Of a stretch of 64,000 nt of DNA, positions 1-17,610 are shown one piece after another. The translations under genes and the position numbers were made by a program. Under the pieces are notes generated by a model. That model made no database searches. It saw only the letters and a program-made list of their open reading frames with translations, and was not told where the DNA came from. Source of the DNA: Patescibacteria group bacterium (GTDB lineage Bacteria; Patescibacteriota; Minisyncoccia; GCA-002772825); contig JANLHB010000005.1 in assembly GCA_024654625.1 (NCBI GenBank), positions 7,191 through 71,190 of the forward strand, written 5' to 3'. Numbering within the stretch: the stretch's first letter is position 1; each line of letters opens with the position of its first letter.

Positions 1-285
1 TCATCTTTAGGCAACACTGAAGAAATTGCACTATTACAAAAATTAATACAATTTCCAAAAGAAATAATGCTAGCAGCCGAAGAATTTAATCCGTCTCGCA
101 TTACTAACCATATTTTTGAAATATCAAGAAGTTTTAATCAATTTTATAACAAACACAAAGTTATATCTGATGATGTACCCCACGAACTAACTGCTGCACG
201 TCTAAATTTTATTCATGCTACGTCCATAGTGTTAAAACAAGGGTTAAACATGATAGGTATTGATGTATTAGAGAGAATGTAATAG
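1..285 (+). CDS. argS: arginyl-tRNA synthetase, C-terminal end (gene start lies left of the window)
   Basis: Frame 1 reads through from position 1 as ...EEIALLQKLIQFPKEIMLAAEEFNPSRITNHIFEISRSFNQFYNKHKV...LNMIGIDVLERM*. This is the typical ArgS DALR anticodon-binding C-terminus, which ends ...M. Confidence 0.8.
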
Positions 286-830
286 GCGACTTCCTTAATG
301 TCTCAAGAATTGAGAGAGGGAAGATAGATTATGAATTTACCAAGTTTGACCTTGGTAAGCTCGTCGACGAACTCTTCGAAGAGTTTAGTCTTAAGATGAA
401 GGAGGAAGGGAAGACGGATCCTAAACTCTACTTTGATACCGAGGTGAAAGGAGAAGTCGTGATAAACGCCGACGAAGGGAAGATCAAGCAAGTCCTCTCC
501 AACCTGATAGATAATTCTATAAAATACACACCTGTCCACCCGAACGGGCCGTCCGGTTTCGTGAAGATTATTTTTACTTTACCTAAAGATAAAGATGTCG
601 CCCTTGTGACTATTAAAGACTCCGGCGCTGGCATGAGCCAAGAAACTATGGGGAGGCTTTTTGATAAGTTCTCTCGGGCAGACAACGCCTCTAAGTTTAA
701 CACTGCCGGTTCCGGCCTCGGCCTCTATGTGGCCAAAGAGTTTATCTCCAAGCACAACGGCCGCCTCTGGGCGGAGAGTGCCGGCGAGGGGAAGGGTAGC
801 ACATTCTTCGTGGAGTTGCCGAAGGGGTAA
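286..830 (+). pseudogene. 5'-truncated sensor histidine kinase fragment, copy 1 of 6 (end of HisKA plus a complete HATPase_c domain); it starts 3 nt after the argS stop and has no H-box
   Basis: Frame 3 translates GDFLNVSRIERGKIDYEF...IDNSIKYT...DSGAGMSQE...GSGLGLYVAKEFISKHNGRLWAESAGEGKGSTFFVELPKG*. The phospho-acceptor His region and the sensor part are absent. Confidence 0.75.
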
Positions 831-840
831 AAAATAAAAA

Positions 841-3459
841 ATGACAGAAAAATATCAAAATAAGTGGATTGATGAAATAAATGAGGCGCATAAAGCTATT
901 AGCAAAATTTGTGTAAAGACAGATGTGAGAAATTTGTCGTGGCTGAAACGTATTGCAGGGATTGATGCGGTTGGGAAATTTGAGAATCAACAAAAGACAG
1001 GCTCTTTTAAATTTAGGGGTGCTTACAATAGATTAAGACGCAATGATCATTTAAGAAATATAATAGTAGCATCAGCGGGAAATCATGGTTTAGCTATAGC
1101 TGAAGCCGCAAAGATTCTTGGATTAAATGCAACAATCTGTATTCCAACAACAGCAAGTCCTCTAAAGCGTAACAGATTAGCTGCTTACGGGTATTCAATC
1201 GTTCCAATAGGAACTCAGCTTGAGGAGTCAACGATTTATGCGAAAAATGTGGCAGAAAAAAATAATTGGGATTTTATTTCTCCATATAATGATTCTCAAA
1301 TTATACAAGGGCAAGCCAGCGTTGCTTTAGAGTTTCTAGAACAGGTCCCCGATATAGATGTCCTTATTGTTCCAGTTGGAGGGGGAGGATTAATTAGTGG
1401 GGTAGGACTCATAGCAAAACAGATAAAACCGGGGATAAAAATAATCGGAGTTGAAGCAGAATCATATTCTTCAGTAGCGTCTTCGCTTAAAGCGGGTAAA
1501 ATAAAAAAAGTAATTAATTATCCAACTTTTGCTGACGGATTGGCTGTGAATCTTGAAGACCGCAGTATCACTTTCGATATAATAAAACAAATTGCAGATG
1601 ACATAATTTTAGTGAATGAAGAAGAGATAGCCGCCGCAGTGTTGGCATTGCTTTATCATGAGAGTCAATTAGTTGAACCGTCTGGAGCTGTAGGTTTGGC
1701 GGCTGTGATAAGTGGTAAAATCAGAACTGGAGCTAAGATTGGTATTATATTTAGTGGAGGGAATATAACGACTGGGAATCTCACTAAAATAATGAATTTC
1801 CCATTTCAAGATAAAAATTTATTTGATTTTATTAATATACATGGAGAAAAAATCTTACACAAAGTTCCACTAAAGGGTATTGATTTTTCTCTTCAAGGGT
1901 ATAAACAAAGAGGATTTCTTTCAGAAAATCAAGAGCTGGATGCACGAGAAGATATTGAATATTTGACAACAAGATTTGATGAAATAAAGCAGATTGTCCA
2001 CCGTATTCAAAATAGACTGAAAGAATATTTGGATTATTGTAATGTAGAGAAATTGAATGTTGATGAATCTGCGGTGTATACAATAACAAATCTCGAAAGA
2101 AATATTACTGAACTACTTGAACAAAACAAAGTGATAAATTTAAATTCAAATTTATCACCTGTTGAGTATGGTAGGCAGGTTACATCTAAATTACAAGCAT
2201 ATAGGTCACTTCTTCACATGGTGATGGTATCTTCGATGGTGCTTGATTGGAGGTCAGCTTCATATGGTCAGAGTTGGGATACTATGTTTTTCGCTTTGGA
2301 TAGTCAGGGGAATCCGGGGGTTAATTATAATAGATACGAAAGCAATCAATTGATTTCTGTAGAAAGGCAACTAGCTGAAGTATTAGGGCTTAATCAAGAA
2401 GAAATTGGACTTTTAGTAACATCTTCCGGTATGGCGGCTTATAATATTATTGAAGCTTATCTTCAGCGACATGTTTTAAAGCCAGGTGACACTGTATTGA
2501 TTCCCCAATATATATATTTTGAAACTGATGAACAGATATCGAAATTACCAAACATAAATATTAAACGAGCTAATACTCATGATATTAATGAAATATGCAA
2601 CCTCATTAAAAAAAATAAACCCAAGGTCGTTTTTCTTGATCCATTGACAAATACTGTTGAATTGCGTTTGACAGATGTAGGGGCTGTGATTAAACATATC
2701 TCGAAAGAGAATCTTAAAAATGATATCTATTTTGTTGTTGATGGAACAATGATGTCAGGGGAAATAAATCCATTCCCCGCAAGTGGTGCAAATTCTCGCG
2801 TGAAAGTTTTATATTATGATAGTTGCAGTAAATACCTTCAGTTGGGACTTGATATTGCCATGGGTGGGCTTGTCGCCATCCCAGTTGAATTTACCGCATT
2901 ATTTGATCGATTAAGGAGAAATACCGGGACAATTATGTATGATTCAGCTAGTAATATATTTCCAACATATTCACGCGAGATACATAGCAAAAGAATGAGA
3001 AGAATGAGTAGAAATGCGATTTTAATCAGTAATGCTATTAATCGAGATAATGAACTCTCTCGGGTGGTGCGAGTTCATTATCCTAATTTGAAATCACATC
3101 CTGATTATGCGCTGGCAGAGAGGTTTAATTCTGTCGGAGGTTTAGTGACTTTTACTTTTACCGACCCTTTTCTTAATCAGCGTGATTCACTAAATAGTTT
3201 CATAGAGACCGCGTTGTCTGTTGCGAAAAAATATGGTATTTCATTGACAAAAGGTGTAAGTTTTGGATTTTCTCTCCCTAGAATATCAGCGGCAACAGCT
3301 ATGGCAGAAAATTCGCCGCCTTTCTTGAGATTGTCGGCTGGAGACAGATCTTACAATGAAACAACATTACTTGCCGACGCTCTTATCGAAGCCTTTAGAA
3401 ATTATATTCATAGTTTTGATAGCCTTAATGATTGTAATAGTGAGACTTCTTCCTCTTAG
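841..3459 (+). CDS. two-domain PLP enzyme: an N-terminal fold-type II threonine/serine dehydratase-like domain fused to a C-terminal fold-type I Cys/Met-metabolism PLP enzyme (cystathionine gamma-synthase / methionine gamma-lyase family)
   Basis: The N-terminal part has GSFKFRGA (PLP lysine), SAGNHG and VGGGGLISG. The C-terminal part has LVTSSGMAAY, VVDGTMMSG and DSCSKYLQLGLDIAMGG (the S-x-x-K PLP lysine context of the CGS family). A ~150-aa linker separates the two parts. Confidence 0.65.
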   Translation: MTEKYQNKWIDEINEAHKAISKICVKTDVRNLSWLKRIAGIDAVGKFENQQKTGSFKFRGAYNRLRRNDHLRNIIVASAGNHGLAIAEAAKILGLNATICIPTTASPLKRNRLAAYGYSIVPIGTQLEESTIYAKNVAEKNNWDFISPYNDSQIIQGQASVALEFLEQVPDIDVLIVPVGGGGLISGVGLIAKQIKPGIKIIGVEAESYSSVASSLKAGKIKKVINYPTFADGLAVNLEDRSITFDIIKQIADDIILVNEEEIAAAVLALLYHESQLVEPSGAVGLAAVISGKIRTGAKIGIIFSGGNITTGNLTKIMNFPFQDKNLFDFINIHGEKILHKVPLKGIDFSLQGYKQRGFLSENQELDAREDIEYLTTRFDEIKQIVHRIQNRLKEYLDYCNVEKLNVDESAVYTITNLERNITELLEQNKVINLNSNLSPVEYGRQVTSKLQAYRSLLHMVMVSSMVLDWRSASYGQSWDTMFFALDSQGNPGVNYNRYESNQLISVERQLAEVLGLNQEEIGLLVTSSGMAAYNIIEAYLQRHVLKPGDTVLIPQYIYFETDEQISKLPNINIKRANTHDINEICNLIKKNKPKVVFLDPLTNTVELRLTDVGAVIKHISKENLKNDIYFVVDGTMMSGEINPFPASGANSRVKVLYYDSCSKYLQLGLDIAMGGLVAIPVEFTALFDRLRRNTGTIMYDSASNIFPTYSREIHSKRMRRMSRNAILISNAINRDNELSRVVRVHYPNLKSHPDYALAERFNSVGGLVTFTFTDPFLNQRDSLNSFIETALSVAKKYGISLTKGVSFGFSLPRISAATAMAENSPPFLRLSAGDRSYNETTLLADALIEAFRNYIHSFDSLNDCNSETSSS

Positions 3460-3489
3460 GATTTTTATTGGAATTATAATTTAATATAT

Positions 3490-4035
3490 TTGTTTATGGA
3501 GAAATCAAATTTTTTTGAAAAACGTATTGAAAGAATGCATAATGCCATAGAAATGGTTCCCACCAAAATTGAAGATATTGATCTTATTGCATCTTGGGAA
3601 TCAAAAGAACCAAATATAATATCTTGGACTAAAGAAAAACATGAATCTATAATAAATAATCCGCAATTCTTACACCTTCTAATTAGTAAGAAAGGTGATA
3701 ATATTGTTCCTGTTGGGTACTCTATTTTGGAAAAGGATTCGCCGGATGAATTGTCTCTAGAGTTTATACGTCTCGTTATATGTGATGAATACAAGAATAA
3801 GGGTTATGGAGTCCTAGCTTTTGAAAATATTTGGGAATTAGCTTTTGATAAATTAAAATATTCTAGAGTTTGGCATGATGTATTTATTGAAAATGAAAAG
3901 GCTATTAATCTTTACGAGAAACTTGGTTATAAAAAATTTAAAACTAGCATTGATTTAACATCCGGTAGAGAGTTGATTTTTTACGAAATGTCTAGCGATG
4001 ATTATTTTTCTAGAGAGAAAGATAATAATTCTTAA
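3490..4035 (+). CDS. GNAT-family N-acetyltransferase
   Basis: Acetyl-CoA motif A-like RLVICDEYKNKGYG and motif B-like NEKAINLYEKLGY. The length is 181 aa. Confidence 0.65.
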   Translation: MFMEKSNFFEKRIERMHNAIEMVPTKIEDIDLIASWESKEPNIISWTKEKHESIINNPQFLHLLISKKGDNIVPVGYSILEKDSPDELSLEFIRLVICDEYKNKGYGVLAFENIWELAFDKLKYSRVWHDVFIENEKAINLYEKLGYKKFKTSIDLTSGRELIFYEMSSDDYFSREKDNNS

Positions 4036-4156
4036 GATATATATTGTGCATAATATCAATATTACGTGGGCCACATTCAATAAGTAATTGCAACTATTAA
4101 TACATAGTGTTATATTTTAATTATTATTAACAGGGCAGAAAATTAAGTAAATTTTT

Positions 4157-6712
4157 ATGGAAAAGCCACCTGATATGCCTAATATCCCCAAAAACTTAAA
4201 CGAAGCGGAAAAAAAAGTTGAAGAAAAAGAAAGATATAATCCTTTTGAAAAAGAAAAATACTGGCAAGATTTCTGGGAAAAGGAAGGTATCTATAAATTT
4301 GATCCTGAGCAACCGGGCCCTCTTTATACTGTAGATACTCCGCCACCAACAATCTCCGGGTCATTGCACCTTGGGCATATTTTTTCTTATACTCAAGCGG
4401 AGGTAATCTCGCGGTTTAAAAGAATGCAAGGGAATAATGTTCGTTATTCTTTTGGTTTTGATAATAATGGTTTGCCAACAGAAAGGTTGGTGGAAAAGGA
4501 ACTTGGGATAAGAGGCGCTAATATGGATTTAGAAGATTTCACAAAAAGCTGCCTTGATATTACGAATAAATATAAACACCTTTATGAAGATCTATGGAAA
4601 TCAATAGGTCTTAGTGTAGACTGGCGACTAGAATATTCCAGTATTTCGCCGGAAGTTCAAAAGAAATCCCAGTCCACTTTTAAGGAGTTATATGAGAGAG
4701 GGGTTATTTATAAAAAAAATGCCCCGGCTCTTTATTGCACAGAGTGTCAGACTTCATTTGCTCAAGCTGAAAAAGAAGATAAAGAAAAAGAAGCTGTTTT
4801 TTATGATTTATCATTTAAGACTGAAGATGATCAGGAATTGATCGTCGCAACAACTCGCCCTGAATTACTGCCCGCATGCAGTGCTGTTTTTGTTAATCCG
4901 GACGATATTAGATTTAAAAACTTAATCGGTAAGAAAGTTATCACTCCCTTGGGAGATGGGGTTGAAATAATGGCTGATGAGAAAGTTGAAAAAGATAAAG
5001 GCTCCGGGGCGGTGATGTGCTGCACCTATGGTGATGAAACAGATATCTATTGGACAAAAAAATATAATTTGAATGAAAAAATCATATTAAACAGATATGG
5101 AAAATTTGAAGATGTAGATGAATTGCCTGACTTGAAAGGGAGGAGAGTAAATGAAGCTAGGAAAATTATCGTTGAAAAATTAAAGTCTGACGGGTTTATA
5201 AAAAAAGAAGAACAGATCAAGCATAATGTTGATGTTCATGAGAGATGCGGTACCCTGGTGGAATTTTTACCGACTACTCAGTGGTTTATGAAAGTACTCG
5301 ATATGAAAGAACGCCTCTTGGATGCGGGAACTCAAATAAAGTGGCATCCTTCATATATGAAGACAAGGTATGAAGATTGGATTAATGGTCTAAAGTGGGA
5401 TTGGTGTATTTCAAGAGAAAGATTTTACGGAATACCAATCCCTGTATTTAGCTGCGATAATTGTGAGAACGTTTTAATCCCAGAGGAAGATCAATTCCCG
5501 ATTGACCCCAAAAAAGAGAAAAATATTCATAATTGTACTGCTTGCGGTGAAGGTAAAATGCTCCCGGAGAAAAATGTCTTGGATACATGGTTTACCTCGT
5601 CTTTATCGCCAGACATAAATAATGACAATCCATTAAATGGCGGATTGAATGGCAAGTTATATCCAATGTCGGTGAGGCCTCAAGCTCACGATATAATTAG
5701 AACATGGGCTGTGTATTCTATCTTGATGGGCTTGTATAAGCATAATGAGATTCCGTGGAGAGATTTAATGATCTCCGGACATATTTTGGTGCAGGAGGGA
5801 GAAAAGATTAGTAAGAAGACCGGTGGAGGAAAATATAAGCCGGAAGAATTAATTGCGACACATTCAGCGGATGCTGTCAGGTATGCGATGTGTGGCGCTT
5901 CGTTAGGCAGAGATTCATATTTTGACGAAAAGGAAGTGAAGAAGGGTAAAAAATTAGTCACTAAAATCTATAATGCCGGCAAGCTGGTGCTTAGTAAACT
6001 GGAAGGATTTGATCCTAAAGTAGAAATAAAAGAAGATGAGCTGGAGGCAATTGACAGGTGGATATTAGACAGATCATTTGAGACGGCAAGTAAGATGTCT
6101 GAATCTTTTGAAAATTATGAATTCAGCCAAGCGCGCCAGATTTTTGAAGACTTTTTTTGGAAAGATTTTTGTGATAATTATTTGGAGATTGTAAAAAGGA
6201 GGCTGGCAATAAAGCCGGACGATAATAAAGAGAAAATGTCAGCGCAATTCACGTCTTACAATTGTTTTCTTAGTGTTATGAAGATGGCTTCTCCTTTTAT
6301 CCCTCATATAACAGAAGAAATGTTCCACGCTCAAACAGTAAAGAAAGAAGATAATGGAGTTGTAAAAGAATCTGTTAGCTCGGAAAGTGGTGGTGGTTAT
6401 TTTTCCAATAATGAAAATATTAAAAGTATACATAGTACTCAGTGGCCATCAACATCACTTGAGTATTCTAATCATGAAAATAATGAAAATGCCAATTTAG
6501 CCTTAGATGTTATCTCAAAAATAAGAAGATTTAAGACTGATAATAAAATAAAATTTGGTACACAAATTACTTTGTTAAAAATAAGATGTCGAGAAGAACA
6601 AAAAAATAAATTAAACGGTTTTTTAGATGATATTACTTCTTTAGCAAAGGCAAATAGTGTTGAAATCGAAATAACAAGTGACGAAGAACTGATTGTAGAG
6701 ATTAGAGTTTAA
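4157..6712 (+). CDS. class Ia aminoacyl-tRNA synthetase (Leu/Ile/Val family), divergent copy with KISKK in place of the canonical KMSKS
   Basis: HIGH region SGSLHLGHIFSY...RFKRMQGNNV...GFDNNGLPTE; WDWCISRERFYGIPIP; DTWFTSS; GEKISKKTGG. The length is 851 aa. It has its own TTGCAA-17-TATATT promoter at about 4098-4126. Confidence 0.6.
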   Translation: MEKPPDMPNIPKNLNEAEKKVEEKERYNPFEKEKYWQDFWEKEGIYKFDPEQPGPLYTVDTPPPTISGSLHLGHIFSYTQAEVISRFKRMQGNNVRYSFGFDNNGLPTERLVEKELGIRGANMDLEDFTKSCLDITNKYKHLYEDLWKSIGLSVDWRLEYSSISPEVQKKSQSTFKELYERGVIYKKNAPALYCTECQTSFAQAEKEDKEKEAVFYDLSFKTEDDQELIVATTRPELLPACSAVFVNPDDIRFKNLIGKKVITPLGDGVEIMADEKVEKDKGSGAVMCCTYGDETDIYWTKKYNLNEKIILNRYGKFEDVDELPDLKGRRVNEARKIIVEKLKSDGFIKKEEQIKHNVDVHERCGTLVEFLPTTQWFMKVLDMKERLLDAGTQIKWHPSYMKTRYEDWINGLKWDWCISRERFYGIPIPVFSCDNCENVLIPEEDQFPIDPKKEKNIHNCTACGEGKMLPEKNVLDTWFTSSLSPDINNDNPLNGGLNGKLYPMSVRPQAHDIIRTWAVYSILMGLYKHNEIPWRDLMISGHILVQEGEKISKKTGGGKYKPEELIATHSADAVRYAMCGASLGRDSYFDEKEVKKGKKLVTKIYNAGKLVLSKLEGFDPKVEIKEDELEAIDRWILDRSFETASKMSESFENYEFSQARQIFEDFFWKDFCDNYLEIVKRRLAIKPDDNKEKMSAQFTSYNCFLSVMKMASPFIPHITEEMFHAQTVKKEDNGVVKESVSSESGGGYFSNNENIKSIHSTQWPSTSLEYSNHENNENANLALDVISKIRRFKTDNKIKFGTQITLLKIRCREEQKNKLNGFLDDITSLAKANSVEIEITSDEELIVEIRV

Positions 6713-6722
6713 TTTATTTAGA

Positions 6723-6978
6723 CTGCCCTCGTGACTATTAAAGACTCCGGCGCTGGCATGAGCCAAGAGACGTTGGATAAAATCTTCGAGAAATTCAACC
6801 GAGCTAAAGATGCCTCCAAGTTCAACACCGAAGGCTCCGGCCTCGGCCTCTACGTGGCTAAAGAGTTCATCGCCAAGCACAACGGCAAGTTGTGGGCGGA
6901 GTCAGCGAGCGTCCCGCCGTGGCGGGATAAAAAGGGAAAGGTAGCACATTCTTCGTGGAGTTGCCGAGGGAGTAGGGG
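6723..6978 (+). pseudogene. histidine-kinase 3' fragment, copy 2 (HATPase_c tail, frameshifted by a ~25-bp insertion that contains the palindrome cccgccgtggcggg)
   Basis: Translation: VTIKDSGAGMSQETLDKIFEKFNRAKDASKFNTEGSGLGLYVAKEFIAKHNGKLWAESA, then the insertion, then ggtagcacattcttcgtggagttgccgaggg. A 38-bp stretch is identical to copy 1. The rest diverges mainly at synonymous sites. Confidence 0.75.
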
Positions 6979-6980
6979 GG

Positions 6981-7469
6981 ATGATAAATATGTTTTATTT
7001 TATAAAAATTATAAATATTTTAAGAAAAATATATTGGTTTATATTCAGGCCTACCACAATAGGGGTCAGGCTTCTAAATATATACAATAATGAAGTTTTA
7101 CTTGTAAAACATACTTATTCTAGTAGCTGGTATTTACCCGGAGGAGGTGCTAAAAATGGAATAGATATTATAGACTCGCTTAAGAGAGAAATTAAAGAAG
7201 AACTCAATATAGATCTTAACGAAGGTCAATTGAGTAGTGCCGATCTGTTTGGAGTTTATGATAATTTCCAGGAATATAAAAACGATTATATCTTTCTGTT
7301 TATCTTAGATAATTTAAAATTAAATTTAACTAAAGCAAAAAATATTGAAATAGAAGAGGCTGGATATTTCAATATTAATAATCTCCCTGGTAGCATATCT
7401 GCCGGTACAAAAAGAAGAATAAATGAGTTTTTATCAAGAAAAGATAAAGTAATAATAAGTAAGTGGTAG
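6981..7469 (+). CDS. NUDIX hydrolase
   Basis: Nudix box LPGGGAKNGIDIIDSLKREIKEELNI. The start follows the gaggg/gggggg stretch at the end of the fragment, which can act as a Shine-Dalgarno sequence. Confidence 0.6.
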   Translation: MINMFYFIKIINILRKIYWFIFRPTTIGVRLLNIYNNEVLLVKHTYSSSWYLPGGGAKNGIDIIDSLKREIKEELNIDLNEGQLSSADLFGVYDNFQEYKNDYIFLFILDNLKLNLTKAKNIEIEEAGYFNINNLPGSISAGTKRRINEFLSRKDKVIISKW

Positions 7470-8749
7470 AGAAAGAAAATAAAATAAAGGCATTAACTCA
7501 ATACAGAGGATTTACTGTTCTTAAGTCTCTGGAGGCAGCTAGTGAAAGAATAGAAATATTAAAAGATATATTGGGAATTAGTGATAATCTAGAATTATTG
7601 AATATTGCAAAAAACGATCCAGAAAAGATACTTTCAAATCTCGGTAATTTATACGACGCCATAGGACCTCGGTCTATGGGGATCAATCCGACCCCTGTAT
7701 GTAATAGACAGTGTACTTTCTGTTCTAGTAGGCAAAGAAATAAGATAAATATAGAAGATAATATTGAAATAACGGAGGATAAATTAAGGAAAGTTTTTGA
7801 AGATTTTATAAGCATGAAAGGGGGAGGGTGTGTGCTGGTTGGTGGAGGAGAGGCATTATTAGCCTGCAAAGGCAAACTTAATGAAGTTATTAATGATTAT
7901 GATTTATATTATGGATTCAATACAAATGGTGTGAATTTGGATAAATTTACGCATGAAAAATTATTAGAAAAAACAAAATGGGTATCACTCAGTTTAATTG
8001 GACACAATAAAGATACATATAATTCTACAGCTGGATTAGATTCTTCAAGTGGTCAGTTTGATGTATTAAATGATAATCTTAAAAAATATATAGAAATAGC
8101 TGATGATTTAAATAGGGAAGGTAAAAGTCATCCCTATATATCAGCAAAAATATTGATATGTAGAGAGAATTATTTATATTCCGGAGAAATATATAATTAT
8201 GCAAAATATTTAGGATTCAAAGATATTTCCCTGAGATGCGTAAACAATTTTGAAATAGAAGAAGAATATAGAAAGAGAAAAATTATTCCTCAAGATATAG
8301 AGCTAACTAAGAAGGAGAAAGAGCAGATAAAAAGTATATTAACCAAAGAAACCGATTTATCAGAAGAGATAATATTTAATATATTGGGTTTACGGGATAA
8401 AATTAAAAATGATACGGTGGTTATAAACCCTACGCTATGTTGGAATGTAGTATTAGGTTTAATAATAAATTTAGATACAAACGGAGAAGTTTTTCTATGT
8501 AACCCAAGGATAGGAATGGAAAGTTTTAGTATTGGAAACATTAATTCAATGAGTCTAAAAAGTCTTTGGAGTGGTTCTATCCATGTTGATGTTGTTAAAA
8601 AAACTTATAAAACATTTAATAAGGGCGCTTGTGACTTAAGTAAATGTCGACACTTTCGTGTAGATCAAGTTATAGAGCAGTTTTTAGAAGGAAAGATATC
8701 ATTAAAAGATAGAAGTTTCGGTGATAAGCAAATGAGTTTTTTCCCTTAG
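7463..8749 (+). CDS. radical SAM protein with a C-terminal SPASM/twitch-like Cys-rich domain and a ~75-aa N-terminal extension
   Basis: CNRQCTFC (CxxxCxxC). C-terminal motifs: NLDTNGEVFLCNP and GACDLSKCRHF. Confidence 0.6.
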   Translation: MVEKENKIKALTQYRGFTVLKSLEAASERIEILKDILGISDNLELLNIAKNDPEKILSNLGNLYDAIGPRSMGINPTPVCNRQCTFCSSRQRNKINIEDNIEITEDKLRKVFEDFISMKGGGCVLVGGGEALLACKGKLNEVINDYDLYYGFNTNGVNLDKFTHEKLLEKTKWVSLSLIGHNKDTYNSTAGLDSSSGQFDVLNDNLKKYIEIADDLNREGKSHPYISAKILICRENYLYSGEIYNYAKYLGFKDISLRCVNNFEIEEEYRKRKIIPQDIELTKKEKEQIKSILTKETDLSEEIIFNILGLRDKIKNDTVVINPTLCWNVVLGLIINLDTNGEVFLCNPRIGMESFSIGNINSMSLKSLWSGSIHVDVVKKTYKTFNKGACDLSKCRHFRVDQVIEQFLEGKISLKDRSFGDKQMSFFP

Positions 8750-8753
8750 AGTT

Positions 8754-8988
8754 TTTTGGAGAAATTCAACCGCGCAGACAACGCCTCCAAGTTCAATACT
8801 GCCGGTTCCGGCCTCGGCCTCTATGTGGCTAAAGCCCCAACACTATCGCTTATCGCGAAAGTGAGGGGTAAAAATTCATCGCCAAGCACAACGGCAAGTT
8901 GTGGGCGGAGTCTGCCGGCGAGGGCAAAGGTAGCACATTCTTCGTGGAGTTGCCGTTAATCTCGACTGGTGTTGAGAAGAAGGGGTAA
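8754..8988 (+). pseudogene. histidine-kinase 3' fragment, copy 3 (disrupted by two short insertions)
   Basis: EKFNRADNASKFNTAGSGLGLYVAK [~40-bp insertion] FIAKHNGKLWAESAGEGKGSTFFVELP [~24-bp insertion] aaggggtaa. Confidence 0.75.
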
Positions 8989-9001
8989 AATGAGGTATAA
9001 T
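8972..9001 (+). promoter_or_regulatory. sigma70-like promoter TTGAGA-18-TATAAT, 7 nt upstream of the ATG at 9009 (leaderless-type arrangement)
   Basis: ttgaga at 8972-8977, which lies inside the second insertion of copy 3. tataat at 8996-9001, followed by ctctata and the ATG. Confidence 0.4.
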
Positions 9002-9008
9002 CTCTATA

Positions 9009-9893
9009 ATGAAATTTGAATTTAGAATCTCAAAATGGGCGAATTTTTATTATTTTGTCCAGAATCTCTCAGAATGGCATTTTAGTAATCGTAAAGATTA
9101 TAATATTTTTTGGAGAGAAAAGCTCAAATCTTTCTCAAAAGATGAGGAATCTGTATTAGAAAAATTTAAAGAGATTAGATTTAAATACCCTAAGACAAAA
9201 AGTTGTTTTGAAAGGGCTTTTTTTCTGTCAGAAAGCCCTTTTGAAGAATTGAATAAATGTTTATCTGAAAGAGAATATTTAACAATGAAGGAAATTTTTA
9301 ATGTTTTAGAGGATAAGTTTGATGCTCTGTATAAAGAAGATGAAGTTCTTCTTAAAAAATGGAAAGATGCATTGAGTGAAGAATCTAATGATAAAAACCT
9401 TATAATAAAAATATTGTCTATATTAAAAATCTTATACAAAAGCAATATTGATACACAAGAAGTTTCTGTCACTCTTTTATTTTCTACTCCTGAGCACATA
9501 GGAGGTGGTGCCAATATAGACCGCAATATGATTAGTCTAGAAGTTTCCCGTTACCCGATAGAAAATATAAATCAAGCCATAGGTATTATTTGGCATGAAA
9601 TAATACATTTGATGTTTCAAGAACGGTATTTTTCATTATTATTGGATTATTTTAAGGAAGATGAGCAGGTAGCTGACCTTGTTAATGAGTTAACCGCTGG
9701 ATCATTATTTCCAAATGGAATTTTAGGTATACGAATATTAAAGAATAAACCATCTACTCAATTATTGCCACAAGTTACCAAAGGGCAAACTATTATGATT
9801 ATTAATTTGGCAAAGGAGTATGTTGAAAAAGGCAGTCAACTGGACAGGAATTTTATCAATAGGTTGATAGATATTATTAAGGAGAAGAATTAA
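9009..9893 (+). CDS. hypothetical protein with an HExxH motif; putative zinc metallopeptidase
   Basis: WHEIIHLMF. There is no other recognisable domain. A convergent terminator hairpin at 9905-9938 follows it. Confidence 0.35.
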   Translation: MKFEFRISKWANFYYFVQNLSEWHFSNRKDYNIFWREKLKSFSKDEESVLEKFKEIRFKYPKTKSCFERAFFLSESPFEELNKCLSEREYLTMKEIFNVLEDKFDALYKEDEVLLKKWKDALSEESNDKNLIIKILSILKILYKSNIDTQEVSVTLLFSTPEHIGGGANIDRNMISLEVSRYPIENINQAIGIIWHEIIHLMFQERYFSLLLDYFKEDEQVADLVNELTAGSLFPNGILGIRILKNKPSTQLLPQVTKGQTIMIINLAKEYVEKGSQLDRNFINRLIDIIKEKN

Positions 9894-9944
9894 AAAAATG
9901 TCCGTCTGAGAAAATAAATTCTCAAACGGACATTTTGGAGGGGG

Positions 9945-10127
9945 TTAACCGCTTATGTCTCCCCACCCTGGGTCGCCGCCGCCGAGGTCGTCCCAATTAC
10001 CCCATTGGTCATCCCAGCCCTTAACGTCTTGTGCTTCTTGCTCTCGACATTCGCGCGGTGTGGCGTTTATGTCGAGGAGACTCCTTGTCCTTTCAGAAGC
10101 TCCCTTGATTGCGTTTGAGCCTGTCAT
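9945..10127 (-). CDS. 60-aa Trp/Asp/Gly-rich small protein translationally coupled to the upstream radical SAM-SPASM gene; candidate RiPP precursor peptide
   Basis: MTGSNAIKGASERTRSLLDINATPRECREQEAQDVKGWDDQWGNWDDLGGGDPGWGDISG. On the minus strand a strong SD, gaaaggagataaaaATG, overlaps the last codons of the radical SAM gene. The region is a local GC-rich patch. Confidence 0.45.
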   Translation of the reverse strand: MTGSNAIKGASERTRSLLDINATPRECREQEAQDVKGWDDQWGNWDDLGGGDPGWGDISG

Positions 10128-10129
10128 TT

Positions 10130-11266
10130 TTATCTCCTTTCTATCCGCGGGGGCGGATGGTTTATTTTCCTCACCTTATCTTCAAGGTAAGTAAAAATTT
10201 CTTTTCTAGTCTCGCAGTAGTAGTATTTTCCTTTTACACCTCCTTTCCTATGCATTGTGCAACCGTTATGACAAGCTTTTTCCCATTTGCACATAATGCA
10301 ATCCTGATGCAGATCGTTCACACCTTTTGCATAATTCATTCTTTCTGATCCATTTAGTATATCTAAGAGCGAAGATCTCGAGATATCACCTAATAGGAAA
10401 TTAGGTTGACCTGATGACCTGTCGCATGGGTAAATTCTCCCATCGTATTCAAGACAGAAATATCCCGAGCATGAGCCGTTAAATGAACATCCAGAACTCT
10501 TTTTCCCGAAGATGACCGCGATAAAGTTTTCAATCTCGCGAAGAGCAAGATTAGGATCGTCTTTATCGAGCCAAAGATTGATCTGTTCTTTGAGAAATCT
10601 CGTCAGTTGCTTGTTTGTCAGACCATGGCTATTTGATTTTAAGCCATTTTGTTCCAGGTCAAGATATACGTTCGTGCCCCACTTCTTGATGCCAAGCTCA
10701 TCCGCAAAAAAATGAAAATTTTCTTTTGTGGATGAAAGACTGGAGGATGTAATAGTCTGAATAAATCCCGGTTTTATGCCGTGCTTACGGATGATCTCTA
10801 GCCCTCTCATTACTGAAGAAAATGTCCCTTTGTCGTTGTTGTTTTTTCTGAATCGGTCATGGCTTTCTTTGTTACCATCTAAGCTAATGCCCACTCGAAA
10901 CTGGTATTTTTTGAAGAGCTCAGCCCACTCGTCGTTGATAAGAGTAGCATTGGTCTGTATAAAGTTTTGAACTTTTTGACCGTTTCTGGTGTTAGACGAT
11001 TGAATACGGACGGCTTCTTCGAAGAAGGGGATACCTGCAAGCAATGGTTCTCCACCGTGCCAGATGAAAGAAAGATTTTCGTTAAAGAGAAGTATGTATT
11101 CGCTTAAAAACTTCTCTAACAGTTCAAAATCCATGATACTGTGAGTAGACTGATCTTTGTCGTTATAGAAGCAGTAGCCACAGCGAAGGTTGCAGTAATC
11201 TCCCGCTGGTTTTATGATTGGGACCATCGTTTTAAGTGGGGAAGTAAGTAACACCCGGTTTTTCAT
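10130..11266 (-). CDS. radical SAM enzyme with a SPASM domain (anSME / RiPP-maturase type)
   Basis: CNLRCGYC near the N-terminus. SPASM motifs: CSGYFCLEYDGRIYPCD and CIMCKWEKACHNGC. A strong SD, aaggaggataaaATG. Confidence 0.75.
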   Translation of the reverse strand: MKNRVLLTSPLKTMVPIIKPAGDYCNLRCGYCFYNDKDQSTHSIMDFELLEKFLSEYILLFNENLSFIWHGGEPLLAGIPFFEEAVRIQSSNTRNGQKVQNFIQTNATLINDEWAELFKKYQFRVGISLDGNKESHDRFRKNNNDKGTFSSVMRGLEIIRKHGIKPGFIQTITSSSLSSTKENFHFFADELGIKKWGTNVYLDLEQNGLKSNSHGLTNKQLTRFLKEQINLWLDKDDPNLALREIENFIAVIFGKKSSGCSFNGSCSGYFCLEYDGRIYPCDRSSGQPNFLLGDISRSSLLDILNGSERMNYAKGVNDLHQDCIMCKWEKACHNGCTMHRKGGVKGKYYYCETRKEIFTYLEDKVRKINHPPPRIERR

Positions 11267-11320
11267 TTTATCCTCCTTGCGTTGTATAGATAAAGGTTAT
11301 TTTTATTTTTTAAAGATCAT

Positions 11321-11350
11321 TTGACAAAGTACAGTTCTAATATGTATAAT
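11321..11350 (+). promoter_or_regulatory. sigma70-like promoter TTGACA-18-TATAAT that reads into HK-fragment copy 4 and the MntA/HepT pair
   Basis: ttgaca at 11321-11326 and tataat at 11345-11350. It lies in a divergent intergenic region shared with the minus-strand radical SAM gene. Confidence 0.5.
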
Positions 11351-11433
11351 GCATATATTATGATTGAAAGTCAACATCAACAAGTTGTAAGCGCCCTAGT
11401 TGTTTTTAATAAGAAATTGCTTCTTTTATAAAA

Positions 11434-11610
11434 GCAAAATCTTCGAGAAGTTCAACCGCACTAAAGACGCCTCCAAGTTCAACACCGAAGGCTCCGGCCT
11501 CGGCCTCTATGTGGCTAAAGAGTTCATCAATAAGCACAACGGCCGCCTCTGGGCGGAAAGCCCGGGGGAGGGCAAAGGGAGTACATTCTTCGTGGAATTG
11601 CCGAGGGGGG
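11434..11610 (+). pseudogene. histidine-kinase 3' fragment, copy 4
   Basis: IFEKFNRTKDASKFNTEGSGLGLYVAKEFINKHNGRLWAESPGEGKGSTFFVELPRG. Its end, ccgaggggggtggtagtATG, supplies an SD for the next gene. Confidence 0.75.
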
Positions 11611-11617
11611 TGGTAGT

Positions 11618-12088
11618 ATGGCGTTAGGAGGTATTTCCTGGTATAATGTTTCTATGAATTTATCCAGAGAGCAGAAAATTAAATTAGCTGATTTTGCCGA
11701 AGCAAATGGTATAAAGTTTATAGTTTTGTTCGGCTCGCAGTCTAGAAAAACTTCTAAAAAAGATAGTGATTTTGATATTGCTGTATTAACAACGCCGGAG
11801 AAGAGCATTTTTGAGAGTTTGGAAAATTATAATAATCTTTTGTTTGGCCTATCTGCTATCTTAGAAATACCGGATTATAAGTTTGATCTAACTGATCTGA
11901 ACAATGCTAATATATTGTTGAGATATGAGATTGTTTCGAGCGGGCAGTTATTGTTTGGAGATGAGATCGATTATCTTGAATTTAAATCTTTTGCGACTAG
12001 GGAGTATATTGACGCTAAGAGATTGTTTGATCTTGAAGATTTTTTAATCAAGAAAAAGCAACGATTACTTTCAGAAGTAGTTCTTTAA
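11618..12088 (+). CDS. nucleotidyltransferase, MntA-type antitoxin
   Basis: LFGSQSRKTSKKDSDFDIAVL (GS...D-x-D). It is paired with the downstream HEPN gene. Confidence 0.65.
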   Translation: MALGGISWYNVSMNLSREQKIKLADFAEANGIKFIVLFGSQSRKTSKKDSDFDIAVLTTPEKSIFESLENYNNLLFGLSAILEIPDYKFDLTDLNNANILLRYEIVSSGQLLFGDEIDYLEFKSFATREYIDAKRLFDLEDFLIKKKQRLLSEVVL

Positions 12089-12093
12089 TTACT

Positions 12094-12561
12094 ATGATAA
12101 AAGAAGATTTTGTAAAAAGGAAAATATCATTGATCCAAGATGAACTCAGTAATCTTGAGCGTCTTTCGCATTATTCTTTTGATGAGATAGCAAGCGACCC
12201 CATAAAGCAGGGAGCATTGGAACGCTTTCTTGAAAGGGTTATTAATAGAGCAATAGATATCAATAATCATATTATCGCAGAGCTTGCAGGTCTTGATACT
12301 GCTACGCCGAAGGATTACACAGATAGTTTCTTGGAGTTGGCGAAGTTGGGTATCTATACTAAAGAGTTTGCGGAAAGTATTTCTAAAAGTGCTGGAACGA
12401 GAAATGTGCTTGTGCATGAATATGATAAAATTGACCAGACTAGGATTTATAATTCAGTCGCGGATTGCTTGCGTGATTATCATAAATATTGCGGATACAT
12501 TTTAGAGTTTCTTGAAAAACAACCAAAGGAGAAATACAACCAAAGGAGAAATAATTTGTGA
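12094..12561 (+). CDS. HepT/DUF86 HEPN-domain toxin
   Basis: R-x4-HEY motif RNVLVHEYD. Confidence 0.65.
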   Translation: MIKEDFVKRKISLIQDELSNLERLSHYSFDEIASDPIKQGALERFLERVINRAIDINNHIIAELAGLDTATPKDYTDSFLELAKLGIYTKEFAESISKSAGTRNVLVHEYDKIDQTRIYNSVADCLRDYHKYCGYILEFLEKQPKEKYNQRRNNL

Positions 12562-12576
12562 GGAGCTTGCTGGTGT

Positions 12577-12668
12577 CACGCCGTGGCGGGATAAAAAGAG
12601 GAAGGCTCGCCCGGATGAACCCGTTCGGACGGGGTAGCACATTCTTCGTGGAGTTGCCGAGGGGGTAG
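12577..12668 (+). pseudogene. histidine-kinase 3' fragment, copy 5 (only the last ~35 nt of the CDS plus the same cgccgtggcgggataaaaag element as copy 2 and a second small hairpin)
   Basis: cacgccgtggcgggataaaaag...cccgttcggacgggg tagcacattcttcgtggagttgccgagggggtag. Confidence 0.7.
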
Positions 12669-12677
12669 GGGATAGTT

Positions 12678-13085
12678 TTACTTTTTGATGAGATGATAAA
12701 TTTCCTTGATATATTCTTTTAGATTGTTATAGCTCAATACCGAAGATACCTCATTTGTCGGTACCCATTTAATGTCATCCCCTTTAAATTCCGGCCTTAA
12801 GAGGGTGTCGTCCTCAGATTGCACTAGAAACATTTTTATTGAAATATTATTTCCATTTGGATGTGTGTAATTTATGTCCGGTAAATCGCATAAAATTTCT
12901 ACTAATAGCCCTGTCTCCTCTTTAACTTCTCTAATCATTGCGTTAGTCGGATCCTCACCATCCTCAATGTGTCCCTTGGGAAAGGACCAATCTTTTTGTT
13001 TCCCACTATAAAGCAGGGCAATTTTACTTTGATCATCCTTACTCAAAATAATAGCGCCGGCTTTCTGGATTAATTTAATAGTCAT
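12678..13085 (-). CDS. NUDIX hydrolase
   Basis: Nudix box GHIEDGEDPTNAMIREVKEETGL. Confidence 0.7.
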   Translation of the reverse strand: MTIKLIQKAGAIILSKDDQSKIALLYSGKQKDWSFPKGHIEDGEDPTNAMIREVKEETGLLVEILCDLPDINYTHPNGNNISIKMFLVQSEDDTLLRPEFKGDDIKWVPTNEVSSVLSYNNLKEYIKEIYHLIKK

Positions 13086-13135
13086 AGTTAGTATTACACT
13101 ATATCACTTATATACCTTTTAGGTTGCAGGTACCC

Positions 13136-13831
13136 CTATTGGGTGATTTTTTTTGCAATTAAAATTAGCCTTGGACTGGTCAAAGAATATTCACTAAAAT
13201 CATAGTTGCCGATAACACGCTCAACAGAAAAACCGGATTTTTCCATCCATTGACTCCAAACAGGATAAGGTGGGTATGGAATTCTAAGATTAGCTTTTTT
13301 ATCGATAAGCTCTAATTTTTTCGCATCAAATGCAAATGGCGAGTTAGGATTTTTCTCAAGGTAAGAAACGATCCTAAATAAATTATCCGTATCAATCAGA
13401 ATTTTGCCTCCGGGTTTAATGTTGCGACCTATTGAAGAGACTGCCTTTTCAATGTTGATGTTGGCTAAGTCGGAGAAAAACCAGTATGCCTTGTCATATT
13501 TCTTTCTTAACTTTAGTTGTTCAATATTGGCTTTATAATAATTCGGCGTTCTTTTGCCGGATTTTTTAGATTCATCTTTTGCTTTACTAAGTAGGTATTT
13601 AGAAAAATCAACACCGTCTACTAAATAACCTCTTTCACTTAGGGCTTTTGTGTGGCGACCTTGCCCGCAAGCAATATCAAAGATGGTATCATTTTTTTTA
13701 AGACTAAGAGCTTTAATTAAAAAGTCAGAATCTTTCTTTATACTTGCTGAAGTTAGAAATGAATCATGATCCTTTAAATAATCACCCTTTTCTCCGTAGT
13801 ATTTAGATAAAAATTCTTTAGATTTTGACAT
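13136..13831 (-). CDS. class I SAM-dependent methyltransferase
   Basis: Motif I IFDIACGQGRHT. The length is 231 aa. Confidence 0.65.
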   Translation of the reverse strand: MSKSKEFLSKYYGEKGDYLKDHDSFLTSASIKKDSDFLIKALSLKKNDTIFDIACGQGRHTKALSERGYLVDGVDFSKYLLSKAKDESKKSGKRTPNYYKANIEQLKLRKKYDKAYWFFSDLANINIEKAVSSIGRNIKPGGKILIDTDNLFRIVSYLEKNPNSPFAFDAKKLELIDKKANLRIPYPPYPVWSQWMEKSGFSVERVIGNYDFSEYSLTSPRLILIAKKITQ

Positions 13832-13904: not shown

Positions 13905-13938
13905 TGACCCATTCTTCGTGGAGTTGTCGTAGGGGAGA
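13905..13938 (+). repeat. histidine-kinase 3' fragment, copy 6 (shortest remnant: tgacccattcttcgtggagttgtcgtagggg)
   Basis: It matches the terminal ~30 nt of the other copies. It is preceded by tatgtataatg, the same -10 context that lies upstream of copy 4. Confidence 0.65.
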
Positions 13939-13977
13939 GAGTAGATTTGATAATAGTTTTTATGGTATAATGTTCTT

Positions 13978-14268
13978 ATGGAAAAAGACGTTATTATTAA
14001 AAAATTGGATAAAAGCCTGTCGGTTTTGAAAGAGAAATACAATGTGAGAAGCATTGGTGTTTTCGGTTCGTATGTAAGAAATGAGGCAAAGGCAGGGAGT
14101 GATTTGGATATTTTAGTCACATTTGAAAAGCCGATAGGATTGTTAAAATTTATAGAACTGGAAAATTATCTCTCAGAATTGACAGGAATAAAAGTTGATT
14201 TGGTATCTCAGAAAGCGCTTAAGCCCAGGATAGGAAAGCAGATATTGGAAGAAGTGGTGAATGTCTGA
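13978..14268 (+). CDS. nucleotidyltransferase, MntA-type antitoxin (second copy, a divergent paralog)
   Basis: VFGSYVRNEAKAGSDLDILV. Confidence 0.65.
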   Translation: MEKDVIIKKLDKSLSVLKEKYNVRSIGVFGSYVRNEAKAGSDLDILVTFEKPIGLLKFIELENYLSELTGIKVDLVSQKALKPRIGKQILEEVVNV

Positions 14269-14623
14269 TCTTATGAAAAGAGATTATCTGGATTATCTTC
14301 AAGATATTATTGACTCAATAAATGACATTGAGAGTTTTGTTGGTGGGATGAATTTTAATTCGTTTGAAAAAGATAAAAAAACTATGAATGCGGTTGTAAG
14401 GAGCTTAGAGATAATCGGCGAAGCTGTTAAGAAAATACCGGAAGATGTGAAGGATAAGTACTCAGATATTCCATGGAAGAATATGTCGGGCATGAGAGAT
14501 AAACTAATCCATGAATACTTTGGCATTGATGAAGAGATTGTTTGGAATGTTGCAATAGAAGAATTGCCTCCTCTTGGGTCATTGTTTAAAAAAATTTTAA
14601 CAGAATCGGGGACGGAGGAATAA
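14261..14623 (+). CDS. HepT/DUF86 HEPN toxin (second copy)
   Basis: RDKLIHEYFGID. Confidence 0.65.
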   Translation: MSDLMKRDYLDYLQDIIDSINDIESFVGGMNFNSFEKDKKTMNAVVRSLEIIGEAVKKIPEDVKDKYSDIPWKNMSGMRDKLIHEYFGIDEEIVWNVAIEELPPLGSLFKKILTESGTEE

Positions 14624-14627
14624 GGCC

Positions 14628-15377
14628 ATGCATATACTAAGGACAAGATTTAAAAAAGAGATAGTGGCTGAATTCTTACCTCCATCAAGGATGTTAAAAG
14701 AGAATAAAGTTATCATCTTTTGCCAGGGGATGCCTAGTGGATCTTCAAAGAAAGACCTTCTCGAATTCTTTAGTAAGAAGGGATACTGGGTATTTCACCC
14801 GCGTTATAGAGGTTCATGGGAGAGTGGAGGCGAATTCCTGAAGCTTTCGCCTCATCAAGATATCTTGGACATTATAGAGCAATTGCCAAAAGGGTTCCGT
14901 AGCGCGTGGGACGGTAAACTCTTTAAGGTGAATCCGGATAAAGTTTATCTTTTTGGTTCAAGTTTTGGCGGTCCGGCCGCTATTCTTGCTTCAGGGTATC
15001 CTTTAGTAGATAAGGTGGTGGTGTTTTCTCCCGTTATCGATTGGAGGTCTCCAAGTAAGGTGGAGCCTCTTGATCAACTGGGCAGGTTCGTCAAGACTGG
15101 TTTCGGAGAAGCTTATCGTTTTCCGATCAAAAATTGGAATAAATTAAAAAATGGCAAATTCTATAATCCTATTGCCGAGACAAAGGATATAGATGGGAAG
15201 AAAATATTTATCATCCACGCTAAAGACGACGAAGTGGTGTCATACATACCCTCAAAAAAATTCTCAGAAAAGACAGGCTGTAAGCTGGTTTTACTGAAAA
15301 AGGGAGGGCATTTATCAGCAAAAAATTTCATCAAAAAGAGTTTCTATAAAAAAATAAGGTGGTTTATTAAAGAGTAA
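14628..15377 (+). CDS. alpha/beta hydrolase (dienelactone hydrolase / S9 peptidase-like)
   Basis: Nucleophile elbow LFGSSFGG (G-x-S-x-G). Confidence 0.5.
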   Translation: MHILRTRFKKEIVAEFLPPSRMLKENKVIIFCQGMPSGSSKKDLLEFFSKKGYWVFHPRYRGSWESGGEFLKLSPHQDILDIIEQLPKGFRSAWDGKLFKVNPDKVYLFGSSFGGPAAILASGYPLVDKVVVFSPVIDWRSPSKVEPLDQLGRFVKTGFGEAYRFPIKNWNKLKNGKFYNPIAETKDIDGKKIFIIHAKDDEVVSYIPSKKFSEKTGCKLVLLKKGGHLSAKNFIKKSFYKKIRWFIKE

Positions 15378-15383
15378 TTATTA

Positions 15384-15671
15384 ATGACCAAAAAATTTCA
15401 GCGGAATATTGAGGACTTCGTGTGCGGGCATTGCGGGGCGAGAGTCAGGGGCAACGGCTACACTAACCATTGCCCCAAGTGCCTGTGGAGCAAGCATGTG
15501 GATGTGAACCCGGGCGACAGGGGAGCGGACTGCGGAGGGATGATGAAGCCCGTTTCTGCCGAGCAGAAGAGTGGAGAGTGGCGGATCCTCCATAAGTGTG
15601 AGAAATGCGGACATGAGAAGATAAACAGGCTATCAAAAGATGACGACTTTGATAAAGTGACGAAGATGTAA
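15384..15671 (+). CDS. RNHCP-domain zinc-ribbon protein
   Basis: CGHCG...TNHCPKC...CEKCGH. The gene is GC-rich compared with its flanks. Confidence 0.45.
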   Translation: MTKKFQRNIEDFVCGHCGARVRGNGYTNHCPKCLWSKHVDVNPGDRGADCGGMMKPVSAEQKSGEWRILHKCEKCGHEKINRLSKDDDFDKVTKM

Positions 15672-17514: not shown

Positions 17515-17572
17515 TAAAAACACATCTCCATTCATTTGGTCCACTTGGAAACCGAGTTTCCAAGTCCAAGTG

Positions 17573-17596
17573 TTCAATCCGCCACGGCGGATTGAA
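17573..17596. repeat. REP-like palindrome ttcaatccgccacggcggattgaa. Family members lie at 38296-38321 and, as a half-copy, at 60998-61014.
   Basis: Perfect inverted repeats with a GC core and AT-rich flanks. All copies are intergenic. Confidence 0.55.
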
Positions 17597-17610
17597 TAAA
17601 TAAGATAAAA

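Follow-up and report, generated by a model that had tools for sequence, protein, structure and literature searches.

A cassette array bounded by histidine-kinase gene tails, without a visible integrase, in a Patescibacteria clade

The 64,000-nucleotide stretch analysed here (64 kb, hereafter the window) is part of JANLHB010000005.1, a contig of 105,920 bp in a metagenome-assembled genome (MAG) of Patescibacteria, and carries an array of gene cassettes separated by truncated copies of one gene, which encodes a sensor histidine kinase. Six 3′ fragments of this gene, designated c1 to c6, lie between position 285 and about position 13,945, all on the plus strand; each is 5′-truncated at a different point and every one of them reaches the 3′ end of the gene, giving nested lengths that decrease from c1 to c6. 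Structurally, the intact gene is found in two related loci, L016 (544 aa, 5453-7087) and L017 (541 aa, 742-2367), and encodes a multi-pass membrane sensor with HisKA and HATPase_c domains. The terminal 20-mer of the gene, CATTCTTCGTGGAGTTGCCG, has six plus-strand sites in the window when at most one mismatch is allowed (802, 6947, 8936, 11584, 12640 and 13910), against a chance expectation, from shuffled sequence, of zero matches. The fragments, together with the gene end that precedes the first of them, are as follows.

67-282, plus strand: 3′ end of ArgS, final gene in the cassette preceding c1
285-830, plus strand: c1, corresponding to about residues 360-541 of the intact kinase (tblastn), with an HATPase_c domain (Pfam, E=6.9e-26) and no H-box; NCBI open reading frame (ORF) MCR4342301.1
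6722-6975, plus strand: c2, starting 9 nt past the ValS stop codon, with an identical junction in the related loci L001 and L018
8750-8958, plus strand: c3, beginning at the stop codon of a radical-SAM enzyme gene, with a 38-nt insertion inside and its stop region replaced
11433-11615, plus strand: c4, 57 uninterrupted codons with no stop, nearest to the L001/L017 type
12557-12670, plus strand: c5, degenerate, overlapping the HepT stop codon, with a 20-nt insertion and a further 29 nt
about 13905-13945, plus strand: c6, terminal block and stop region only, the copy closest to the conserved core genes

The left ends of the fragments are heterogeneous. An earlier sequence-only reading of this region had recognised c1, which is present as described and longer than had been stated, its frame being open already from position 285, directly past the ArgS stop codon at 280-282. 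At this junction the final ArgS codons, GAGAGAATG-TAA, overlap the kinase sequence GAGAGAATGGTAATA (kinase taken from L001), so that the left end of c1 rests on a 9-nt microhomology, and c3 and c5 begin right at, or overlap with, the preceding gene’s stop codon; at the other end, homology among the copies extends for varying distances past the kinase stop codon. A seventh copy (copy 0) is known from its protein only, MCR4342295.1, a 5′-partial sequence 96% identical to c1 and encoded five genes upstream of c1 by accession order; being partial, it must lie at the contig edge. Functionally, no fragment in the window combines a DHp/H-box region with a complete ATPase, as a functional histidine kinase does: c1, with HATPase_c only, starts downstream of the H-box seen in L001, L016 and L017, c2 and c3 are frameshifted, and c4-c6 comprise at most 57 codons. 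Annotation pipelines label such remnants ‘ATP-binding protein’ or ‘WalK, partial’, which overstates their signalling capacity.

Evolutionarily, the fragments differ from one another in the manner of protein-coding genes. Pairwise identity of the copies is 71-85%, and in a codon-aware alignment of c1-c4 the ratio of nonsynonymous to synonymous divergence (dN/dS, Nei-Gojobori) is 0.10-0.23, with a synonymous divergence (dS) of 0.45-1.28. Differences at codon positions 1/2/3 number 10/7/28 between c1 and c2 and 8/4/26 between c1 and c4, and c1-c4 as a group show a two- to three-fold excess at third positions. The synonymous, third-position bias proposed in the sequence-only reading is thus borne out, and the dN/dS values support its view that the copies diverged under purifying selection in functional kinase genes, and not by drift in situ. 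Its statement that the first four copies keep the reading frame holds locally; c2 (+20 nt) and c3 (+38 nt) are frameshifted, and c1 and c4 alone are uninterrupted. The presence of all copies within 14 kb on one strand could also be expected if the kinase 3′ end had been duplicated locally in tandem and had drifted neutrally, or if the array were an artefact of assembly, but we give these two explanations next to no credence. The low dN/dS and the strong third-position excess speak against local duplication, and copies that differ this much are not collapsed repeats. A second MAG contig (L024) is 100% identical across window positions 5712-27514, which span c2-c6, so that these five copies are no accident of assembly, and two assemblies of a relative made independently (ENA and JGI) both have the ValS-fragment junction.

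The copies are also mosaics of one another. A 38-nt block is identical in c1 (606-643) and c2 (6731-6768), after which identity drops to about 75%; c1 and c3 group against c2 and c4 in segment A, and c2 and c3 against c1 and c4 in segment B, with all four combinations present; and tract-length permutation (run) tests returned p<0.0002 for c1/c2, 0.01 for c2/c3 and 0.03 for c1/c4. Together, the shared block, the segment swap and the run tests confirm the recombination between copies that had been read from the sequence. Exchange breakpoints fall at four or more different positions (at least four, counting window copies and relatives), including the end of the c1/c2 block and the swap between segments A and B. 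Collinearity between the window and L001 stops about 160 nt into c2, and the relatives’ copies are mosaic too, with one L001 copy (L001b) equal to L017 over its first 124 nt and the other (L001a) equal to L017 after position 4643.

Several fragments carry insertions. The 20-mer CGCCGTGGCGGGATAAAAAG occurs exactly at 6915-6934 in c2 and at 12579-12598 in c5, as had been claimed, where it shifts the frame (net +20 nt), and was found neither elsewhere in the window nor in 18 related loci compared. In c2 it overlaps the palindrome CCCGCC-GT-GGCGGG (6913-6926), which is imperfect in c5. An extra 29 nt in c5 (12604-12632) is unique and holds the small second hairpin already described for this copy, cccgttcggacggg, at 12619-12632; the possibility that this segment is an inverted piece of the kinase was dropped (BLASTP E-value 0.055, one comparison). 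The extra segments ascribed to c3 are likewise there, in the form of a unique 38-nt insertion (8835-8872) and the replaced stop region. The sequence-only reading had proposed that the small palindromes (in c2, c3 and c5) might belong to recombination sites or be miniature mobile insertions, a suggestion prompted by an exact 20-nt insertion with a palindrome in two non-adjacent copies. We consider it very improbable. The 20-mer is confined to two window copies, the extra segments of c3 and c5 are unique, and neither c1, c4 and c6 nor any of the relatives’ fragments has the palindromes, the relatives’ fragments being free of the 20-mer as well; in DNA folding, moreover, the six fragment ends fold no better than shuffles (z -1.0 to +1.0) and share no hairpin. 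The palindromes are real and without sign of function, and the shared 20-mer is better read as an indel that c2 and c5 have in common through descent or through gene conversion. An insertion that breaks the frame in both copies implies that at least one fragment was already dead when it was copied, moved or converted, so the copies are not all fresh captures from working kinase genes.

Between and beyond the fragments lie whole genes with no relation to the kinase, followed by a conserved block of core genes.

841-4035, plus strand: PALP + Cys/Met-PLP (pyridoxal phosphate) fusion enzyme (872 aa) and GNAT acetyltransferase (Pfam); L001 has four other genes here
4079-6712, plus strand: ValS unit (promoter region and valine-tRNA ligase), 90% identical in nucleotides to and collinear with L001, into the first ~160 nt of c2
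6981-8749, plus strand: NUDIX hydrolase and radical-SAM/SPASM enzyme (Pfam)
8972-9001, plus strand: promoter-like TTGAGA-N18-TATAAT, downstream of c3; also after the kinase in L001 and L017, before a different gene
9009-11266, both strands: 294-aa protein of unknown function (plus) and radical-SAM/SPASM enzyme (minus) (Pfam); a homologous pair lies behind the L015 fragment (79% nucleotide identity)
11618-12561, plus strand: MNT/HepT toxin-antitoxin pair (Pfam)
12678-13831, minus strand: NUDIX hydrolase and SAM-dependent methyltransferase (Pfam)
13978-15671, plus strand: second MNT/HepT pair, alpha/beta hydrolase and RNHCP protein, between c6 and the conserved block
15712-28010, plus strand: core block of ABC transporter, AspS/AsnS, ScpA, ScpB, S11 peptidase, GT4, amidohydrolase, FtsW and MurG (Pfam, synteny)

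In more distant relatives without an array, the kinase is followed only by aminoacyl-tRNA synthetase genes and then by the core block. L021 has an intact kinase, no array and the block ABC, AspS, ScpAB, S11, GT4 and FtsW, and L020 has the same block minus ABC. Since these array-free relatives place the core block near the kinase, the array in the window takes up the interval from the kinase position to the conserved core.

Among the cassette genes, the 872-aa protein (841-3459) joins a PALP-type domain (threonine dehydratase/cysteine synthase-like) to a Cys/Met-metabolism PLP domain, an unusual two-PLP-domain architecture, and two different radical-SAM/SPASM enzymes are encoded in neighbouring cassettes (7463-8749, and 10130-11266 on the minus strand). 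Only short overlapping ORFs occupy 9945-10130, between the 294-aa gene and the second of these enzymes. The idea that ValS is compositionally foreign was rejected, as its GC content at third codon positions (GC3) of 0.32 is within the core-gene range. Within the core block, a 326-aa ORF between the S11 peptidase and GT4 (21978-22958) has no Pfam match and recurs in the second MAG (L024); the kilobase that holds it is the most GC-rich of the window (0.517).

Sequences at the start of several cassettes resemble expression signals. The same motif, TGGTATAATGTT(T)CT(T)ATG, stands ahead of both MNT/HepT pairs (11634-11656 and 13958-13980) and includes an extended -10 box 6-7 nt before the ATG, a spacing which suggests that these transcripts are leaderless; the first MNT gene would then probably start at 11654, not 11618. 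Counts of promoters and terminators were no higher than in shuffles. The kinase tail, its stop codon and the G-rich or promoter sequence that follows might have been retained because together they form a transferable signal for expression of each cassette’s leading gene, through a ribosome-binding site, translational coupling or a promoter, with selection contributing to the repetition. In line with this, the start codons of the PLP gene, the NUDIX gene and the MNT gene lie 10-25 nt past the block ending ...GAGTTGCCGAGGGGG, and the TTGAGA-N18-TATAAT sequence after c3 recurs past the kinase in L001 and L017 before an unrelated gene. Yet c5 faces the 3′ end of a minus-strand gene, a separate promoter-like sequence, TGGTATAAT, follows c6, and a signal of this kind would account for the last ~40 nt, not for fragments of 180-550 nt nor for their mosaicism. 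As an explanation of the array we regard it as improbable; it would complement, and not replace, the displacement account favoured below.

Comparison with relatives shows that the fragments persist while the cassettes change. The close relative represented by L001, L018, L015 and L017 has a ValS gene 90% identical in nucleotides and the same ValS-stop/fragment junction, but four different genes replace the PLP enzyme and the GNAT acetyltransferase, and C39-like, arginase-like, ThiF-like and MNT/HepT cassettes stand where the window has NUDIX and radical-SAM genes. Arrays with other cassettes between like fragments are present in L001, L015, L018 and L019. Each genome has its own variant of the terminal block, TTC..GAG in the window and TTT..GAA in all copies of L001, L015 and L017 (two synonymous changes), which indicates that copies evolve in concert within a genome. 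L019, from a distant lineage with a kinase about 50% identical, has its own pair of fragments, the second before an MNT/HepT cassette; the two agree over 122 nt, after which 8 of 22 positions differ. In L023 (GCA_042577045.1, Patescibacteria), a truncated amidohydrolase is fused in frame to a kinase 3′ fragment and followed by MazE (2696-3589). This amidohydrolase gene lies downstream of ScpAB-S11-GT4, so that the kinase locus is not the only place where kinase tails are accompanied by toxin-antitoxin cargo. Two further candidates fell away: the locus P0113/L022 is an ordinary kinase cut by a contig end, and the 324-aa gene after the L001 kinase is unrelated to the 294-aa gene of the window. 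The family of the latter (N-terminus ...NLSEWHFS.R.KD...) directly follows a kinase copy in three lineages, with members at 9009-9893 in the window, at 1537-2415 (minus strand) in L015 and at 2392-2600 in L019, where a frameshifted remnant has its ATG overlapping the kinase stop codon; the 294-aa gene may be an ancestral downstream partner of the kinase.

Recombination machinery was sought in the window and in the relatives’ arrays. A Pfam scan of 61 ORFs across the window, including every large non-overlapping ORF, detected no tyrosine or serine recombinase and no Phage_integrase domain, and no integrase or remnant of one was found in about 12 cassettes (window, L001/L015/L018 and L019). The only transposase-like gene of the window, a 331-aa ORF at 48692-49687 on the minus strand, 35 kb from the array, has HTH_38 and HTH_32 domains like the N-terminus of an IS30-type transposase and no catalytic domain at E<1e-5. 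No attC-like fold appeared at the six fragment ends in the comparison with shuffles, and positions 1-16 kb matched no Rfam family (one sub-threshold snoRNA hit, E=0.11). The terminal-block pattern had no matches in viral contigs; in one-genome-per-species contigs, among which the source species is not represented, it had 13 single matches in unrelated phyla, with no arrays, all of them ordinary kinases ending TFFVELP. A dif/Xer-type site was dismissed on inspection, as the terminal block has no dif-like palindromic arms. Diversity-generating retroelements have a reverse transcriptase nearby and adenine-specific, protein-changing differences; the window ORFs include no reverse transcriptase domain (Pfam) and the differences here are mainly synonymous and at third positions, so this candidate was rejected as well. 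Our literature search found no description of kinase-fragment arrays in Patescibacteria.

Several known systems leave strings of partial genes. In the C-terminal displacement of Rhs genes, homologous recombination with small circles has been proposed, by which the older piece is shunted downstream and variable-length fragments accumulate behind an intact gene (PMC2935791). The kinase array resembles Rhs/CdiA loci in its 5′-truncated fragments of one gene, in one orientation, of variable length, from the same gene clade and with a distinct GC signature, and homologous exchange between copies, a trait expected of Rhs-type displacement, is evident here. The Rhs string lies downstream of an intact copy; for the kinase array, the intact gene is seen in relatives (L016, L017), and in this genome the contig ends within copy 0. 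In Rhs, the conserved piece is the core end and the variable part is a toxin tip with its immunity gene; in the kinase array the conserved piece is the kinase 3′ end, itself not diversifying, and the variable part consists of whole unrelated genes (metabolic enzymes, toxin-antitoxin pairs, aminoacyl-tRNA synthetases). At icd, the elements e14 and phage 21 supply a replacement 3′ end, the displaced icdC differs mostly by synonymous or conservative changes, and excision yields chimeric genes (PMC13626634). Insertion into the 3′ part of a protein-coding gene (proposed for the kinase) and a displaced tail with mostly synonymous changes are common to both cases. At icd, however, one prophage integrates at a fixed attachment site by means of an integrase of its own, as opposed to at least seven fragments, no integrase seen, several breakpoints and small cassettes. 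Tandem accretion of integrative and conjugative, integrative and mobilizable, and cis-mobilizable elements (ICE/IME/CIME) proceeds by successive insertions at one site, with decayed elements keeping att repeats (PMC5704250), and tycheposon islands hold scattered partial tRNAs (10.1101/2020.12.28.424599). As in these, partial copies of the target gene serve as repeats and older elements would be pushed further in; units flanked by direct repeats of the target gene’s 3′ part, the mark of accretion, are present here in six fragments plus a seventh on the contig. They differ in having site-specific integrases, of which some copies or remnants are usually left, and short fixed att cores. The kinase array shows no integrase in the window or in the cassettes of L001, L015, L018 and L019, and on a fixed core its evidence points both ways, with the terminal 27 nt invariant in four copies and exchange breakpoints at several positions. 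Small, mostly one- or two-gene cassettes bounded by repeats, toxin-antitoxin pairs included, whose content varies between relatives, also recall integrons. An integron has an IntI-type tyrosine recombinase beside its array, and its attC sites are imperfect palindromes that fold single-stranded, with conserved R/L core sites. By contrast, the kinase array has no intI in the 64-kb window, its repeats are coding remnants with no attC-type palindrome, and some cassette genes are on the minus strand.

We posit, with modest confidence, that the array was probably built by displacement (accretion) at the 3′ end of a sensor histidine-kinase gene that is conserved in a Patescibacteria lineage. Incoming DNA, foreign or re-circulating, would consist of a 5′-truncated kinase 3′ segment plus cargo genes, and a single crossover of the Campbell type, in the 3′ region of the kinase or in any earlier fragment, would bring it in. 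Each insertion would leave one more 5′-truncated tail, giving cassettes separated by co-oriented tails. The tails would have been shaped earlier in working kinase genes of related organisms, hence their low dN/dS, and later exchange between copies (crossover or gene conversion) would produce the mosaics and homogenise the last 27 nt, while copies would gain indels and lose sequence by deletion from their 5′ side, as far as the preceding gene’s stop codon. The starts at upstream stop codons and the shortening from c1 to c6 fit such progressive 5′ trimming in a streamlined genome, although we infer the erosion, as we do the manner of insertion and the order of events. Homologous (RecA-type) recombination via circular or flanked intermediates is favoured over a dedicated integrase because exchange breakpoints are spread along the fragment, because the ValS-c2 collinearity with the relative ends inside c2 (as expected of a crossover within the fragment between a donor 5′ part and a resident 3′ part), because the microhomology at the left end of c1 points to an illegitimate join or deletion and not to a recombinase site, and because about a dozen cassettes hold no integrase or remnant.

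Site-specific accretion is the strongest of the alternatives. Elements with tyrosine or serine integrases that target the kinase 3′ end and supply a replacement end could have inserted in tandem, their integrases since lost or encoded elsewhere in the genome, and an integrase may act in trans. Direct repeats that represent the 3′ end of a target gene with synonymous differences are what icd/icdC shows at e14, and tandem decayed elements are well known (PMC5704250; 10.1101/2020.12.28.424599). Four copies (c1, c2, c3 and c5) agree at every one of their last 27 nt and show 14-25% difference upstream of them, every genome has its own terminal variant, and in L019 a block of identity gives way to a divergent terminal block. 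On the other side, integrases and their remnants are missing from the cassettes and from the rest of the 64 kb, breakpoints occur at several positions instead of one, the 5′ ends of the fragments are variable and at least one of them rests on microhomology, the cassettes (1-6 kb) include ArgS and ValS, and the terminal-block pattern is not found in viral contigs. The identity of the last 27 nt would follow either from frequent conversion in the sole segment common to all copies or from a protected site for a recombinase encoded elsewhere; because of it, we give site-specific accretion, though rather unlikely, an appreciable share of the probability.

That terminal identity is one of several points that weigh against displacement by homologous recombination. 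The intact kinase of this genome lies outside the window, and the end of the contig truncates copy 0. One boundary in gene content, at about 4079 on the upstream side of ValS, has no kinase remnant. The adjacency of kinase and 294-aa gene in three lineages means that the order of the array is not necessarily chronological, and the left-to-right shortening may be partly chance. The transfer event, a circle junction and RecA dependence are predictions of the account. In L001 (ENA, 10,612 bp) the first 141 nt equal the last 141 nt (1-141 and 10472-10612), 141 being the assembler’s k; L018 (JGI) is 100% identical to L001 and runs across the join (5799-5939), so that the two together describe a 10,471-bp circle or tandem unit with two cassettes (including ValS) and two kinase fragments. 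This join could be a circular or tandem form, but a loop of the de Bruijn graph through near-identical repeats explains it equally well; L015 has the same repeat end and leads into the chromosome, which makes a graph loop or a tandem duplication equally possible.

A broader version of displacement, which we offer tentatively and think quite unlikely to hold as a whole, is that in this clade of Patescibacteria, a group described as largely without classical mobile elements, the kinase 3′ end serves as a standing capture platform. Small circles, each a kinase tail with its cargo, would leave and re-enter the array through the host’s homologous recombination or an unrecognised recombinase, exchange would take place preferentially in the terminal block, and the repeated part would gain GC by biased conversion, the result being an integrase-less analogue of an integron that carries even aminoacyl-tRNA synthetase genes. 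Compositionally, GC3 in the intact kinase (L017, L016) is mostly 0.1-0.2 in the membrane-sensor half (0.03-0.27 over codons 1-195) and rises to 0.5-0.83 in the repeated part, which starts at about codon 210; in the array-free L020 it is low throughout the kinase gene. The jump fits biased conversion or repeated replacement of the repeated half, and it also speaks for the displacement account itself.

Gene gain and loss in the ultra-small, streamlined Patescibacteria are poorly understood, and surveys of the group report many genomic islands with little on mechanism (PMC12455944). The cassette array described here, bounded by kinase-gene tails, without a visible integrase and recurring in a Patescibacteria clade, follows the known logic of displacement and accretion. 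It forms a readable record of where DNA entered, which genes came in (toxin-antitoxin pairs, NUDIX hydrolases, radical-SAM enzymes, methyltransferases and even ValS and ArgS) and how the copies later recombined among themselves, and the kinase tails provide a simple sequence marker for locating such hot spots in other genomes. If host homologous recombination suffices for its growth, the Rhs-type displacement idea would be widened from toxin tips to general gene acquisition.

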